From assembly GCA_021794015.1 (NCBI GenBank), contig JAJYRQ010000001.1:39448-103447 (forward strand): a DNA stretch of 64,000 nt. Direction: 5' to 3'. Position numbers and translations under genes: made by a program. The DNA is from Deltaproteobacteria bacterium (lineage in GTDB: Bacteria; Desulfobacterota; Binatia; Binatales; Binataceae). The notes under the pieces are model-generated. The model did no database searches. It was not told the origin of the DNA and worked only from the letters and a program-made list of their open reading frames with translations. Shown one piece after another: positions 41,208 to 47,237 of this stretch (within the stretch, counting starts at the first letter, position 1; the number at the start of each line of letters is the position of its first letter).

Positions 41208-41534
41208 ATGGCTGCCAGCGCTTTTCTCGCCCAGGCCGACGCCGCGTTCGCCAGGATCGCCGCGTGGCTTGAAAAATTCGATCCCGACGAGCTCGACTAC
41301 AGCGTGGGCGACGGCATGGTGAGCATCGAGTTTGCCGACGGCTCGCGCTTTGTCGTAAGCCGCCAAAGCGCAGCGAACCAGCTTTGGCTGGCCGCCGCGG
41401 CCCACGGATGGCACTACAGTTGGAACGAAAGCCGGCAAGCTTGGCTCGACGACAAGGACGGACACGAGCTTTTTGCCGGGCTTGCTCGGGTGATTGGCGA
41501 GCAGCTCGGGCGCCAAGTTTTTTTCGACGGGTAG
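41208..41534 (+). CDS. cyaY: Frataxin-like iron donor protein CyaY
   Basis: 108 aa with CyaY motifs (DYSVGDGMVSIEFADGSRFVVSRQSAANQLWLAA...GWHYSW). Confidence 0.8.
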   Translation: MAASAFLAQADAAFARIAAWLEKFDPDELDYSVGDGMVSIEFADGSRFVVSRQSAANQLWLAAAAHGWHYSWNESRQAWLDDKDGHELFAGLARVIGEQLGRQVFFDG

Positions 41535-41590
41535 GCCGGGACGCTTGCGCCGCTGGGCGCGGCGCGCCCTACGTTTTTCTTTCTTCCAGC

Positions 41591-41683
41591 GGAGAGGTGG
41601 CCGAGCCCGGTTTAAGGCGCACGCCTGGAGAGCGTGTAAACTCCAAAAGGGTTTCGGGGGTTCAAATCCCTCCCTCTCCGCCA
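41591..41683 (+). tRNA. tRNA-Ser (anticodon GGA)
   Basis: 93 nt. Acceptor stem GGAGAGG/CCTCTCC. Anticodon stem CACGC/GCGTG with loop CUGGAGA. Long variable arm. T-loop TTCAAAT. Encoded 3' CCA. Confidence 0.85.
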
Positions 41684-41699: not shown

Positions 41700-42110
41700 C
41701 TACTCGGCACGCGGCTTGCCGCCCTCGACCGGGCCGCCGGCTGCCTTCCAGGCCTTGAAACCGCCGGCCATGTGGCACACCGGCTCAAGCCCCATTTGCT
41801 GAACGGTCTGCGCTGCCAGCGCAGAGCGCATGCCGCCCGCTCAGAAGAAGAGAAACTTCTTGCCCGATGCGAAGACCTCCTTATGGTAGGGGCTCTGCGG
41901 GTCGACCCAGAACTCGAGCATCCCGCGCGGCGCATGAAACGCTCCCGGAATTCGTCCGTCGCGGTTCAACTCCCGGATATCGCGCAGGTCGACGAAGACG
42001 ACGTTGGGGTCGTTCTTTAGCCGCAGGGCAGCCTCCGGGCCTACGCACGCTACGGCCGCATTGGCTTCGGCGACGAGTTGCGCTACCGATTTCTTCAGCT
42101 TGAGTGTCAT
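41700..42110 (-). CDS. Rhodanese-domain sulfurtransferase with an in-frame TGA (putative selenocysteine) at the catalytic Cys position
   Basis: The annotated ORF stops at TGA (41841-41843). Read through, it continues in frame as ...KKFLFF-U-AGGMRSALAAQTVQQMGLEPVCHMAGGFKAWKAAGGPV..., giving 136 aa in total. The TGA sits exactly at the catalytic Cys of the CxxGxR loop. A SECIS-like hairpin lies 15 nt downstream of the UGA. Confidence 0.6.
41807..41825 (-). promoter_or_regulatory. Candidate bacterial SECIS-like hairpin
   Basis: mRNA 5'-UCUGCGCU-GGC-AGCGCAGA-3' forms an 8-bp stem with a GGC loop, starting 15 nt after the in-frame UGA. Confidence 0.4.
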
Positions 42111-42410
42111 AACAACTCCGCTCCACCTCCGCCGGTTACCTGGTTGTGCGGGTTGCGCCGGCGCTCCCTTTCGCTGTGCCGGCGGGCTACAGGTTTAAGG
42201 TGGCCATGACGGCTTGCGCGACTGCGGCGCTGGCCGCGCGTTGTCTGCCTGCGACACGATAGCAGCTTACTGCCCCGGCGGGGGGCCGATGCAAGGGCCG
42301 CCCCGCGCGAGTTCCTGTCACGAGCGGCAAAAAGGCTCAAGCCCTTGTCTTACCGGCAGGCGCGCGAGAGGTCCCGGGCCCACGGCGCTCAGGCCGTGAC
42401 GCCGAGGCAT

Positions 42411-42579: not shown

Positions 42580-44601
42580 TCACGGCAGGCAGACCGACTG
42601 CCCCCGGGCGATGCAGGCCACGGTCGGCACCAGGACCGGCGCCGCCGCGCCGACGAATTCGGCCACAAGGTTGCCAAGGTTTGTCACCCAGACATTTCCT
42701 GAGGCGTCAATCGCAATCCCGGTCGGCTGCTTTAAGTCGTTGGTGCAGCTCTGCGTGACGCACTGGGTAAACCCGGTGGACGGCGAGAGCGCGGCGCCCG
42801 ACGGGCTAAGCTCCGTAATACTCTTGGGGCCGGGGAGGCTTGACCCGAAGTTCGCCACCCAGACGTTGCCCGATGAGTCAACCGCGATGCCGAACGGCGC
42901 GCTAAGGCCACCGCCGGAATAGGGAGAGCTGCCGACATTGTTGCCTGACGGGTCGATCTCGCTAACGTTGTTGCCGCTGAAGTTTGTCACCCAGGCGTTG
43001 CCCAGGGGGTCGATCGCGATCCCTTGGGGGTTGTTGAGCGTGCCCGCGGTGTAGCCGCAAGGGGTCGCGTTGCTGGCGCATCCCGAGCTCGGCGACAGAA
43101 AAGCGCCGCCGGGGCTGACCTCGGCGATCGTGCCGAGGCTCGAGTTCACGCCTGACGGGCTGTCATAGTTGGCAATCCACAGATTGCCCACCGCGTCGAG
43201 CGCGGGCGGGTTGGCATTGATAAATTCGTTGCTGCTCAACGTTAGTAGCGTGCTCCCGGACGAGTTGAGTTCGACGACGGAACTCGGGTTGCCAACGCCT
43301 ACGACCCAGACATTGCCCGAGGGCTCGATCGCGACTCCGCCCACGGAGACGGACACGGTGTAGCCGCTATTTCCTGAAAGCGGACTCCCGGAGGGGCTGA
43401 GCTTCATGACAGCGGTAGCGCCGCCGTCGCCGACCCAGGCATTGCCGAAGAGGTCGATAGCCAGCGCGGCCGGTCCGTTCAGCCCGCCGCTAAGGAAGCC
43501 AACGGAACCGGAGAGCGAGGCGCCCAGCGGGCTCAGCTTGGCGACACCGGCTCCGGTAATGGGGTTAGCGATCCAGGCGTTGCCGGAAGCGTCGATCGCG
43601 ATGCCTGATGGATGATCCAACCCGCCGCCGGTGTAGGTCAGCGCGACCGTCCATGCGTTGGGCGCGCTGCCCAGGGGCGGCGCGAAAGCGGGCGTTGCCG
43701 AAGTCAGGTTGAACAGCGCGACGACGTTGTTGGCGGGGTTGAGCGCGATCTCCAGCGCGGCGCTAAGGGTGTCCTGTGGCTGGGCCACGCCGCCAGGCAC
43801 GGTGCAGGGTGCGCTGTTGTTCGTGCCGGGAGTCGAGCCCGGAACTACGCAGCTAAACAGGTTCTGGCATGCGGTTGAGCTGCTCCCGTTTGAGTTCACA
43901 CAGTCCTGAAGAATATCGGCGATGGTATTGAGCTCGGCTGCCGGCGAAACCACCTCGGGCGCCAGCGAGGCGGGGGCCAACCCGGTGGCAACGTCCACCA
44001 GGTTGGCCACCAGGGCCATGGCGTTGGCCAGCCCGGTGGCGTTCGAGAACGGGGCGCCGATGTCCAGGATGCCGGTGGCGGCGGTCCGCATTACGACCGG
44101 CGGGCCGGCGGTCTGCGCTCGCGCGGTTACCGCGCCGCCCGAAGTATTGATAAAGCGCGCCAGCGCCCAGACCGAAGCGACGGTGGTCAGCTCGTTGATA
44201 TCCACGGAAAAGGTGTTGGGCAGGTTGGCGCAGTTGCCCAACGCGGCCAGCATCTGGAGCGCGCTGTTGGTTCCCGCGCCGGGGTTGCCCCCCTGCGCGG
44301 TGAGGTAGACCTGCACGCCCGAGTAGGGGCAGCTAAAGTTCAGGGCGAAATGGCCGGTGGAGTCGGTGGTGGTGACGGCAAGCGAGGTTGCGCCCTGGCC
44401 GTAGCCGCCTGTCCCGGCCTGCCAGAGGGTCACGGCGGAGCCCGAGACCGGGTTCTGCCCGCCATGAACCTGCCCGGCTATGGCGAGCGCGCTGCCGCCC
44501 GCCGCGCCTCCCGCGCCGCCGCATCCCGCCGCCAGCGTCAGCAACAGCGCAGCTCGCAGCGTGGCGGCTGCGGCTCGCAGCAGATGCTTGTGTTTATCCA
44601 T
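42580..44601 (-). CDS. NHL-repeat beta-propeller lipoprotein (paralogue 1)
   Basis: Lipoprotein signal (LTLAAGC). Carboxypeptidase-regulatory-like N-domain. Multiple NHL-type repeats (GIAIDASGNVWVAN...). RBS AGGGGGAAG upstream of the MDKHKH start. Confidence 0.7.
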   Translation of the reverse strand: MDKHKHLLRAAAATLRAALLLTLAAGCGGAGGAAGGSALAIAGQVHGGQNPVSGSAVTLWQAGTGGYGQGATSLAVTTTDSTGHFALNFSCPYSGVQVYLTAQGGNPGAGTNSALQMLAALGNCANLPNTFSVDINELTTVASVWALARFINTSGGAVTARAQTAGPPVVMRTAATGILDIGAPFSNATGLANAMALVANLVDVATGLAPASLAPEVVSPAAELNTIADILQDCVNSNGSSSTACQNLFSCVVPGSTPGTNNSAPCTVPGGVAQPQDTLSAALEIALNPANNVVALFNLTSATPAFAPPLGSAPNAWTVALTYTGGGLDHPSGIAIDASGNAWIANPITGAGVAKLSPLGASLSGSVGFLSGGLNGPAALAIDLFGNAWVGDGGATAVMKLSPSGSPLSGNSGYTVSVSVGGVAIEPSGNVWVVGVGNPSSVVELNSSGSTLLTLSSNEFINANPPALDAVGNLWIANYDSPSGVNSSLGTIAEVSPGGAFLSPSSGCASNATPCGYTAGTLNNPQGIAIDPLGNAWVTNFSGNNVSEIDPSGNNVGSSPYSGGGLSAPFGIAVDSSGNVWVANFGSSLPGPKSITELSPSGAALSPSTGFTQCVTQSCTNDLKQPTGIAIDASGNVWVTNLGNLVAEFVGAAAPVLVPTVACIARGQSVCLP

Positions 44602-44717
44602 TTTGCTTCCCCCTGAAGGCCGAATGCCTTCTTTGGTTCGTTCGACGGACCAAGCGCCGTCGGAATTCTCCGCCTGCGATTGCAATGACAAACGGAACCG
44701 CTTTTCCCACAGGCTGG

Positions 44718-47237
44718 TCATGGCGTGCGTCCCGAGGAACCCCCTAACGGCGCCGGGCGGCCGCGAAGGGCGGGCTCGGGCCTTTGCGGAGGCCCGATAA
44801 GCGGAGTCGTCACCGGGACCGCAATGCCAACGAATTCGGTTACGCTGTCGGCGGCGAAATTAGCCGCCCACAGGTTGCCGGAGCGGTCGATGGCCGGGTT
44901 GAAGGGCTCGCTCAGGCCCCCGCCGGTAAAGCCGCTTGAAGGCGAAAGCGGCGTGCCGGGCGAGCTCGCGCCGCGGCCCTCAAGCGCGCTGATGCTTGCG
45001 CCATGGTAGTTGGTGACCCAGACGTTGCCCCCGCCGTCGACGGCCACACCGCCCGGAGAGGCGAGTCCGCCGCCGGTGAAACCGCGCGCCGGGGAAAGCG
45101 CGGCGCCGTCGGGTCCCAGCTCGGTTACGCTGTCTCCGTAAAAGTTGGTCACCCAGACGTTGCCCGCCTGGTCGACCGCGATCGCCTGGGGAAGGTCGAG
45201 TCCGCCGCCGGTATAGCCCGAAGAAGGAGAGAGCGCCGCGCCGCCGGGCGTAAGCTCGGAAACGTTGTCGTTGCTCTGGTCGGCAATCCAGAGGCTGCCC
45301 GCGCTGTCGAAGGCAAGGCCGACGGGAAAGTTGATGCCGGCGCCGGTAAAGCCGCCCGAGGGCGAGAGTGCTGTCCCTGTGGGAGCGAGCTTGGTGACGC
45401 TCGCGTTGCCGTAGTTGGCTGCCCAGACATTGCCCGCGGGATCGATCGAAAGCGCAACCGGAAAGTCGATGCCGCCGCCCCAATAGCCGCTTGCGCCCGA
45501 AAGCACAGCGCCGTCCGGGGCAAGCTTCGTTACGCTGCCGAGCCCGGAATTTACCCCGGGCGGGCTCTGTTCATTGCTTACCCAGACGTTGCCCGTTGCA
45601 TCCAGTGCGATCGCGAACGACTCCTCGAGGCCGCCGCCGGTAAAGCCGCCCGCGGGCGAAAGGGGCAACCCCGCTCCGCTCAGCTCGCTGACGGCGCTGT
45701 TGTAGTTGGCGACCCAGACGTTGCCCGCGCCGTCTATCGCCACGCTCGTCGGCTCGCTCAGGCCGGCGCCGACGAAATTAAGCGCCAGCGTCCAGTCAGT
45801 GGGCGGCGCGCCCAGCACGGGGGAGAAGACGGTCGCTTTGCCGGCGAGCGTGAAAAGATCGGCGACATCGACCCGGCCCGGGTTGAGCGCAATCGCGAGG
45901 GCGGCCTTCAATGTGTCCGAAGGCTCGGCAGCGCCCGGCGGCAAGCTGCACGTTCCGGTGCTTGCATTGTAAACGCCGGCCGCCGCGTCGCAGAAAAGCT
46001 CGTTGCAGGGCGCCGGACCGGTCGCCGACGGGCCTGCGCTGCTGACGCACTGCGCCAGCGCGTTGGCCAGCGTGTTCAGTTTCTCCACCGGCGCGGTTGC
46101 TCCCGCAGGCAGGTTGCCCCCCGGCGCCGTGCCGGCGCCGAGACTCACCAGGTTTTGCACCGCGCCAAAGGTGTTCTCGAGACCAATCAGGTTCGCTGAG
46201 GAAGTCCCGACGGCCTGCGGATTCACCGCATCCATGAACTGCGCCAGCGCGTAGACCGAGGCGACCGTGGTCGCCTCGTCGATAACCACCGTGGCAGGCG
46301 GGCCGACCCTGATGCTGCCGCCGCACGGGCCCAGCGCCGCCATCAGCTTGAGCGCGGAGTTATTTCCATTGCCGTCGTTGCCGCCGCTCGCAACCAGGTA
46401 GACGTACGACGGCGGGCCGGTCGAAGGGCAGTCGAAGAAGAGCGAAAAGCCGCCGTTTGAGGCGGTCGCGGTCGAGGCAAGCGCCGTTGCCCCGGAACCG
46501 TAGGCGCTTGTACCGGCCTGGTAGGCGGTGACGAACGAATTTGCGACGGGGCCAGCACCGCTGCCGACTCCCGCGCCTCCCTGAACGGTGCCAGATACAC
46601 TCTGCGCCGCCGCCGCCGGCGCCAAGCCAGGGCGCGGCCTCGGCGTCCCCCGGGGAGTTGGCGTCGCCGTTGAAGTTGGTCGGGGCGTGGGAGTAGGCGT
46701 GGCCAGGGCCCTGGGCGTCGCCCTCGGCGTTGGCGTGGGGGCCGGCGCAGTAGGTGTCGGCGGTGTGGGCGTAGGGCTTACGCCTTGTCTCGGTGTCCGC
46801 CCGCCGGGCGGGCGCGCGTCGGTCGCTAGCGCAAACCCAGGGGGCAGCGCCGAGGCGGCTCCGGTGGTGCCGCGGCTGCCGCTATCTTCGGCGCCAAGAC
46901 CGCCAAGCTTCAGCCGGGTCGGTTCCTCGACGCTGGACGCCGGCAGCGACTGAACCGCGAAACCTGGCCGCGGCGCTGCGTGCGTAGCCGCTTCAACCGG
47001 AGTGTCGCCTGTGGCCGGCGCGCCGGTAAGTCGCCTCGAAGGTGCACCCGGGTCTTGCTCGCTCCGCGCCGGCCCGCGGATGGCGCTCCTCTGAGACGAC
47101 GCGCTGAGACCGCCGGTGCCGCCGCTGCCGCCTCCCTTGCATCCGGCGACAAGCAGCCAGGCAGCAAGTACGCAGACCCAGGGCCGGCCCCGAGCCTTTG
47201 ACCGGCGCTCACCTTGGCTGCTGCGAACCCGCCTCAT
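44718..47237 (-). CDS. NHL-repeat beta-propeller lipoprotein (paralogue 2) with a Pro/Thr-rich linker
   Basis: Lipobox LLVAGC. Long PT-rich linker (TPTPPTPTAPAPTPTPRATPR...). Repeats homologous to paralogue 1 (VAIDGAGNVWVANY...). Confidence 0.7.
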   Translation of the reverse strand: MRRVRSSQGERRSKARGRPWVCVLAAWLLVAGCKGGGSGGTGGLSASSQRSAIRGPARSEQDPGAPSRRLTGAPATGDTPVEAATHAAPRPGFAVQSLPASSVEEPTRLKLGGLGAEDSGSRGTTGAASALPPGFALATDARPPGGRTPRQGVSPTPTPPTPTAPAPTPTPRATPRALATPTPTPRPTSTATPTPRGTPRPRPGLAPAAAAQSVSGTVQGGAGVGSGAGPVANSFVTAYQAGTSAYGSGATALASTATASNGGFSLFFDCPSTGPPSYVYLVASGGNDGNGNNSALKLMAALGPCGGSIRVGPPATVVIDEATTVASVYALAQFMDAVNPQAVGTSSANLIGLENTFGAVQNLVSLGAGTAPGGNLPAGATAPVEKLNTLANALAQCVSSAGPSATGPAPCNELFCDAAAGVYNASTGTCSLPPGAAEPSDTLKAALAIALNPGRVDVADLFTLAGKATVFSPVLGAPPTDWTLALNFVGAGLSEPTSVAIDGAGNVWVANYNSAVSELSGAGLPLSPAGGFTGGGLEESFAIALDATGNVWVSNEQSPPGVNSGLGSVTKLAPDGAVLSGASGYWGGGIDFPVALSIDPAGNVWAANYGNASVTKLAPTGTALSPSGGFTGAGINFPVGLAFDSAGSLWIADQSNDNVSELTPGGAALSPSSGYTGGGLDLPQAIAVDQAGNVWVTNFYGDSVTELGPDGAALSPARGFTGGGLASPGGVAVDGGGNVWVTNYHGASISALEGRGASSPGTPLSPSSGFTGGGLSEPFNPAIDRSGNLWAANFAADSVTEFVGIAVPVTTPLIGPPQRPEPALRGRPAPLGGSSGRTP

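Follow-up and report, generated by a model that had tools for sequence, protein, structure and literature searches.

A candidate selenocysteine-containing single-domain rhodanese encoded across an in-frame UGA in an uncultured Binataceae lineage

Does the TGA that terminates a short rhodanese-like ORF in a Binataceae genome end translation, or does it encode selenocysteine (Sec) at the catalytic position of a longer enzyme? The question arose from the 64,000-nucleotide stretch of DNA analysed here (hereafter, the window), for which an earlier note had proposed a Sec-containing sulfurtransferase, with a pseudogene, a sequencing error or a split gene as the alternatives. We addressed it by following the reading frame across the TGA, by examining the hairpin located downstream of this codon and by comparing both features with those of relatives of the gene that carry either TGA or a Cys codon in the same column.

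The reading frame and its catalytic codon

On the minus strand, the frame opens with an ATG (42110-42108), adjoined upstream by the purine-rich stretch GGAGCGGAG (42115..42123), which is likely the ribosome-binding site; it then runs through 89 codons (41844..42110) to an in-frame TGA at codon 90 (41843-41841) and continues for 46 further codons (AGGMRSALAAQTVQQMGLEPVCHMAGGFKAWKAAGGPVEGGKPRAE) to a TAG stop (41702-41700). The complete coding sequence (41700..42110) thus comprises 136 codons, Met1 to Glu136, followed by TAG, and would specify a single-domain rhodanese with Sec at residue 90. The earlier note had described an 89-aa ORF ending at TGA and followed by 46 in-frame codons with the rhodanese consensus, all of which recur in our reading at the same coordinates. 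With Cys put at the TGA, the 136-residue query matches the Pfam family PF00581 over residues 26-124 (E=1.7e-18; 67.4 bits against a cut-off of 22.2), in an alignment that spans the TGA and includes profile positions 3-102 of 102, that is, 100 of the 102 positions. The read-through protein is 73-81% identical to Cys orthologues of about 135 aa over 96-99% of its length (thousands of proteins), several of which are named 'rhodanese-like domain-containing protein [Candidatus Binataceae bacterium]'.

Every public gene call that we examined breaks this gene into an 89-aa 'rhodanese fragment', corresponding to the codons preceding the TGA, and a 43-aa orphan ORF initiated at Met94 (41700..41831, minus strand). 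In the window and in its six equivalents (L001-L006), the 89-aa product carries a weak Rhodanese hit and the 43-aa product is unannotated. To judge from the alignments, the separate 43-aa ORF is a gene-calling artefact and represents the C-terminal part of the same protein.

In an alignment with 17 orthologues, the column of the TGA is that of the invariant catalytic Cys of the motif FFCAGG[MLG]RS, and it coincides as well with the catalytic Cys of the protein of known structure PDB 2hhg_A (E=4e-45). The active-site loop, U-A-G-G-M-R-S, lines up position by position with C-A-G-G-[MLG]-R-S of the 17 orthologues and 2hhg, and so conforms to the pattern C-x-x-G-x-R followed by S/T, the first residue being a predicted Sec instead of Cys. 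The assignment of Sec to the first position of the Cys-X-X-Gly-X-Arg loop, put forward in the earlier note, is accordingly borne out column by column. Among 162 database proteins, all but one have Cys at the UGA column, and scans of DNA recovered 115 forms with TGC or TGT there among the matches listed, along with 22 distinct orthologues, other than the window gene, that have TGA in this very column.

TGA-containing relatives occur both close to the window gene and at a distance from it. At close range, the identical 89-aa truncated ORF is recorded in 39 blocks of a public assembly collection, and the same TGA allele is present in at least 24 contigs, with the same neighbourhood in all 24 that were read; these include the NCBI MAGs GCA_027403035.1, GCA_027402905.1 and GCA_027403105.1 as well as several ENA assemblies. 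Between these copies and the window there are a few SNPs, including a synonymous one inside the gene, which indicates independent strains sharing the same TGA; none of the 7 strain-level copies contains a frameshift or an extra stop. The recurrence of one TGA in at least 24 contigs, amid SNPs at the strain level, speaks against the sequencing error considered in the earlier note. At longer range, a codon-degenerate pattern, FF-TGA-[AS]GGxRSALA, with synonymous positions left free, matched 18 genomes of a species-representative collection, mostly soil MAGs labelled Candidatus Binataceae, Binatia or 'uncultured delta proteobacterium'; the TGH version of the same pattern, applied to metagenome contigs, retrieved at least 120 loci, with 5 TGA and 115 TGC/TGT forms among the matches listed. 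Counting the window, the matches listed include 23 distinct TGA orthologues, hereafter Sec forms, and the other 22 share 76-79% identity with the window protein.

In all 23 Sec forms listed, the frame past the TGA is intact for 42-51 codons. Using the Nei-Gojobori method, we estimated pN/pS among these 23 forms at 0.18 over the 88 codons upstream, 0.11 in the five-codon stretch that separates the UGA from the hairpin described below, and 0.22 over the 30 codons past the hairpin. When the window gene was compared with the other 22 forms listed, the respective values were 0.22 upstream and 0.25 downstream, with pS of 0.70 and 0.54. Purifying selection acts alike on the codons before and after the UGA, and the similarity of the two ratios implies that the part beyond the UGA is translated.

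The hairpin downstream of the UGA

Within the coding sequence, a hairpin that fold and conservation with the UGA identify as a putative bacterial SECIS core (41807..41825, minus strand) begins 15 nt past the UGA, in full agreement with the 8-bp stem and GGC loop noticed earlier. Its 5' arm, UCUGCGCU (41825-41818), and its 3' arm, AGCGCAGA (41814-41807), form the 8-bp stem and enclose the GGC loop (41817-41815), so that 23 nt separate the UGA from the apical loop. For an identical copy of this 19-mer, the computed folding energy is -11.5 kcal/mol. Taken in isolation, this structure is unremarkable: the folding energy of the 77-nt region is no better than that of shuffled sequences (z=-0.02; the window is 66% G+C). 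Given that the single-sequence fold does not exceed chance, the significance of the hairpin can come only from comparison with relatives.

This comparison separates the Sec forms from the Cys forms. Among the matches listed, the 18 nt UCUGCGCUGGCAGCGCAG (+18 to +35) have zero entropy in all 23 Sec forms, six third-codon, synonymous positions included, and occur in none of the 115 Cys forms. Across the six hairpin codons of the 23 Sec forms listed, pS equals 0, compared with about 0.6 outside them; third positions flanking the hairpin carry 1.0-1.7 bits of entropy in the Sec forms, and the six hairpin third positions themselves carry 1.1-1.6 bits in the 115 Cys forms listed. The full 8-bp stem can be drawn in 21 of the 23 Sec forms, the remaining two retaining 7 bp, and in 0 of the 115 Cys forms listed (Fisher p=7e-23); the mean hairpin folding energy is -11.4 kcal/mol in the Sec forms and -4.4 kcal/mol in the Cys forms among the matches listed. 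The consensus structure that RNAalifold derives for the Sec forms is again this hairpin, with no covariation in it. The latter is explained by the hairpin never varying, so that the evidence of pairing consists of conservation together with co-occurrence with TGA.

The published bSECIS model calls for a loop of 3-9 nt, a stem of 4-16 bp and a minimum free energy of -7.5 kcal/mol or lower (PMC13188914, Fig 2 legend), with G in the first two loop positions, typically G and then G/U, and a UGA-to-loop distance of 16-37 nt (PMC13188914). The window hairpin, with its GGC loop, 8-bp stem, 23-nt spacing and -11.5 kcal/mol, lies within each of these bounds (PMC13188914). On this comparative evidence, the hairpin is predicted to be a functional element tied to the UGA.

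Alternative readings of the UGA and the Sec/Cys history of the family

In a neighbour-joining tree of 182 sequences, every Sec form falls into one 33-leaf clade, in which 10 Cys forms are nested, and the window sequence is the earliest branch of this clade. The DNA of three nested Cys forms was compared, and they differ in the state of the hairpin: one (P0036) combines TGT with a fully intact hairpin, another (P0026) has TGC and a single stem mismatch, and in the third (P0057), which also has TGC, the hairpin is lost. Such graded decay is what one would expect if replacement of Sec by Cys frees the SECIS element from constraint, and the intact hairpin beside TGT in P0036 makes that Sec-to-Cys change look very recent. 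The P0036 rhodanese is found at two loci (L145, 10001-10426, and L146, 2545-2970), with TGT and the intact 19-nt hairpin. The earlier note had counted TGC/TGT orthologues that lack a downstream hairpin as a potential refutation; such orthologues do exist, but the criterion was misplaced, because this is the expected look of a Sec/Cys family, so that they lend support instead. Sec forms, a just-converted TGT form and older, decayed Cys forms together make the family a test set for Sec-to-Cys replacement and for the training of SECIS predictors. One sequence close to the Sec forms (P0122, from a Logan assembly) has Arg at the Sec/Cys column (FFRAGGGRS); the Arg codons CGA and AGA lie one base away from TGA, and an inactive variant or an assembly error could explain it.

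The pattern of relatives also bears on the readings of the UGA that dispense with Sec. A recent pseudogene in the window's species, produced either by loss of Sec decoding or by a nonsense mutation of TGC/TGT to TGA, in a frame that has not yet decayed, would accord with several features of the locus. ARAGORN, run on the window and 149 sequences (1.04 Mb), and tblastn with E. coli SelA, SelB and SelD, queries that were validated by NCBIfam models at 446-920 bits, found no selA, selB, selC or selD in the 64-kb window or in the 1.04 Mb of related loci; the window protein keeps Met94 and Ala115, which are Cys-clade-like, and forms a basal branch of the Sec clade; and the PrdB-like partner discussed below is absent from its neighbourhood. 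Yet the window carries the exact 19-nt hairpin, which is seen in none of the 115 Cys forms among the matches listed, and a Cys gene newly hit by a nonsense mutation would not acquire a SECIS hairpin in the process. Furthermore, the hairpin has stayed unchanged at a synonymous divergence (pS) of 0.54-0.70 from the other Sec forms, the downstream pN/pS of 0.25 is close to the upstream value, and the strain-level copies show neither frameshifts nor extra stops. Thus, we regard decay in this species as highly unlikely, and for the family at large the pseudogene alternative of the earlier note is contradicted by 23 diverged TGA forms listed, which keep the downstream frame at a pN/pS of 0.22 against 0.18 upstream.

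The chance is even slighter that the UGA is a genuine or regulated stop and that the locus is a split gene encoding the 89-aa fragment and a 43-aa peptide from the ATG at 41831, notwithstanding that gene callers predict exactly this pair and that an in-frame ATG (Met94) does lie 4 codons past the TGA. Neither fragment would constitute a full rhodanese domain, the active-site loop would be severed at its first residue, and the five-codon interval that leads from the UGA to the hairpin evolves under purifying selection (pN/pS 0.11). Moreover, Met94 is replaced by Gly in all 22 other Sec forms among the matches listed, so that the family has no downstream start, and this removes the split-gene reading entertained in the earlier note. 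Equally slender is the probability that the UGA is read through without Sec, by near-cognate insertion of Trp or Cys or by some other recoding, with the hairpin merely stimulating the read-through. In other systems, read-through can be enhanced by structures that follow the stop codon, and the identity of the inserted amino acid cannot be told from sequence alone; nevertheless, the UGA falls exactly on a catalytic Cys that is redox-active and nucleophilic, and TGC/TGT take its place at various points of the tree, which is the signature of Sec/Cys pairs; the hairpin fits the SelB-type bSECIS model, with G-G opening a 3-nt loop at the required spacing; and UGA is a regular stop codon as well in these organisms, where several orthologues end with it.

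With these alternatives weighed, we consider it very probable that a single gene, mis-annotated in public records, occupies the locus and encodes a single-domain rhodanese selenoprotein of 136 residues. The proposal of Sec at the rhodanese catalytic Cys, accompanied by a SECIS-like hairpin, thereby gains support from the comparison with relatives. By the established bacterial mechanism, SelB-GTP-Sec-tRNA(Sec) would bind the hairpin and deliver Sec when the UGA enters the A site, and, should selenium or SelB be missing, translation would stop and leave an inactive 89-aa fragment. By analogy with the rhodanese family, the Sec90 selenolate would sit in the six-residue cradle loop (U-A-G-G-M-R-S) and could take up sulfane sulfur, or possibly selenium, as an Se-S(-Se) adduct for transfer to an acceptor; the lower pKa and higher nucleophilicity of Sec might make the enzyme a faster carrier than its Cys orthologues.

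Gene neighbourhoods, implications and known systems

In the window, the rhodanese is a solitary gene flanked by NHL-repeat genes on one side and by tRNA-Ser/cyaY on the other, and its neighbours (CyaY, two DUF507 proteins, NHL proteins and a radical SAM protein) recur in no other rhodanese locus compared. The 64-kb window contains a single tRNA, which is also its sole Rfam hit: tRNA-Ser(GGA) (41591-41683, plus strand), convergent with the rhodanese gene and with 17 nt between its 3' end and the rhodanese stop codon; Rfam, promoter and terminator scans added nothing beyond this tRNA. A G+C-rich, terminator-like hairpin (41555-41569) follows the cyaY-like gene (41208-41534). Upstream of the rhodanese, and parted from it by a 470-nt intergenic region, two large tandem genes (42580-47237, minus strand; 713 aa and 839 aa by the ORF list) show only faint matches to the NHL, SGL or Vgb_lyase beta-propeller families, and neither has a homologue at any of the other rhodanese loci compared. 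Six other in-frame-TGA candidates picked out in the window by a GC3 filter were rejected, being Arg/Ala/Pro-rich and off-frame; the same filter missed the rhodanese as well.

A different arrangement prevails among the relatives. In 14 related loci, the gene immediately upstream of the rhodanese encodes a 266-aa PrdB-like protein, for example, at L007 (3800-4579, minus strand), L016 (5848-6624, minus strand) and L012 (4658-5437, plus strand), in each case upstream of a Sec-rhodanese, and at L145 (9133-9933, plus strand), with 10 further loci likewise. Against TIGR04483, the PrdB-like protein reaches 140 bits of the 300 required by the cut-off; PF07355 is a further match. Its gene has an in-frame TGA of its own at codon 163 (LVPA-U-PLDHQTVG), followed after 11 nt by its own conserved hairpin, CCAGACC-GUN-GGUCUGG, and the resulting U-P-L-D differs from the UxxC of PrdB/GrdB. 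In the protein collection, all of about 105 full-length homologues have Cys at the corresponding column, alongside fifteen 162-aa truncations; no PDB relatives of this neighbour were found. Judging by these two genes, Binataceae appear to carry at least two Sec/Cys families, and the PrdB-like selenoprotein of the relatives implies that Binataceae use selenocysteine. The PrdB-like gene is absent from the window.

The pair comes in several versions, Cys/Cys at L149 and Sec/Cys at L145; at the latter, the P0036 locus, the PrdB-like gene still has TGA and its hairpin contains an A.C mismatch (GGCCUGG). At L149 (6001-7952), where all are Cys forms, one strand encodes the PrdB-like protein, then, after a 15-nt gap, the rhodanese (C-A-A-G-G-R-S), and a SAM methyltransferase. 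Distant Cys-type PrdB-like genes that have no rhodanese neighbour occur in MAGs of Gammaproteobacteria and Acidobacteriota (L150, L151 and L152), and in these three loci, as in L145 and L149, a SAM-dependent methyltransferase adjoins the PrdB-like gene, which hints at a conserved association of the two. In most of the Sec clade, gene neighbourhood suggests that the rhodanese would work with the PrdB-like selenoprotein encoded next to it, frequently in the vicinity of a methyltransferase gene. One Sec-rhodanese and PrdB-like pair, on a 4.9-kb contig (L015, DASQHV010000523.1), belongs to a MAG labelled Candidatus Acidiferrales (Acidobacteriota); its position outside Binatia could reflect horizontal transfer or a binning error.

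It is conceivable, albeit rather doubtful, that the Binataceae clade constitutes a Sec-rhodanese subfamily beyond the five catalogued forms, normally residing in an undescribed two-selenoprotein module that the window gene has left. If so, soil Binatia would possess a module composed of the PrdB-like protein (U-P-L-D), the Sec-rhodanese and, often, a SAM methyltransferase, which would run a selenium-dependent reductive or a sulfur/selenium-transfer reaction, and the window gene would be an early-branching copy gone from that module. The pair of PrdB-like protein and rhodanese is absent from the section on selenoprotein operons of a recent review (PMC13188914). This module of the relatives, located outside the window, is a more novel lead than the window gene itself.

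The finding implies selenocysteine use by Binatia, and our literature search found no link between Binatia/Binatota and selenocysteine. The full window protein stays below the cut-off of every NCBIfam model, so that annotation pipelines will keep missing the clade; given the split gene calls and the lack of a curated model, genomes of Binataceae, an uncultured soil lineage, miss at least one selenoprotein, and usually two. Furthermore, U is recorded in none of the 162 close homologues in the protein collection, which leaves the clade un-annotated in practice.

The closest counterpart of known structure is RPA3614 of Rhodopseudomonas palustris (PDB 2hhg), a 139-aa protein of the same architecture (E=4e-45), deposited as a hypothetical protein, whose active-site stretch FYCAGGLRSALAAKTAQDMGL has Cys where the window protein has the predicted Sec. 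With respect to the recoding signal, the window locus resembles the SECIS/SelB system of the E. coli fdhF type in that the hairpin is within the ORF just after the UGA, G opens a small apical loop and the spacing falls within 16-37 nt; it differs in having a loop of only 3 nt (GGC), a perfect 8-bp stem and no bulged U. By analogy, a Binataceae SelB presumably recognises this hairpin.

Sec-rhodaneses are known but rare (PMC13188914, PMC9312934, PMC1088965), as the earlier note had remarked, and earlier surveys list them as 'rhodanese-related sulfurtransferase' selenoproteins. A 2026 review distinguishes five forms (PMC13188914). Form 3, the 'rhodanese-related (seleno)protein' rhodanese_LYCAU (NF041203), is likewise a small rhodanese-domain selenoprotein family, but its CxU motif puts Sec elsewhere in the loop than the UxxG of the window protein, which scores 31.9 bits against a cut-off of 115 and does not belong to it. 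Form 5, TsoB (NF045694), also combines a rhodanese domain with Sec and is encoded beside other selenoprotein genes; it is, however, a 572-position rhodanese/DsbD fusion with UxxxxU, whereas the window protein is a 136-aa single domain with neither feature, and membership is rejected here too (22.6 bits against 805). The likeness is with forms 2 and 4, which are PF00581 proteins with UxxG, represented by MBM9537886.1 and MCY3690685.1 (PMC13188914): a single PF00581 domain, predicted Sec at the catalytic Cys, a U-A-G-G that corresponds, by motif alone, to UxxG, a putative SECIS within the coding sequence just downstream, and a predominance of Cys homologues. The window protein thus adds to an already catalogued kind and leaves the knowledge of rhodaneses and of Sec recoding unchanged.
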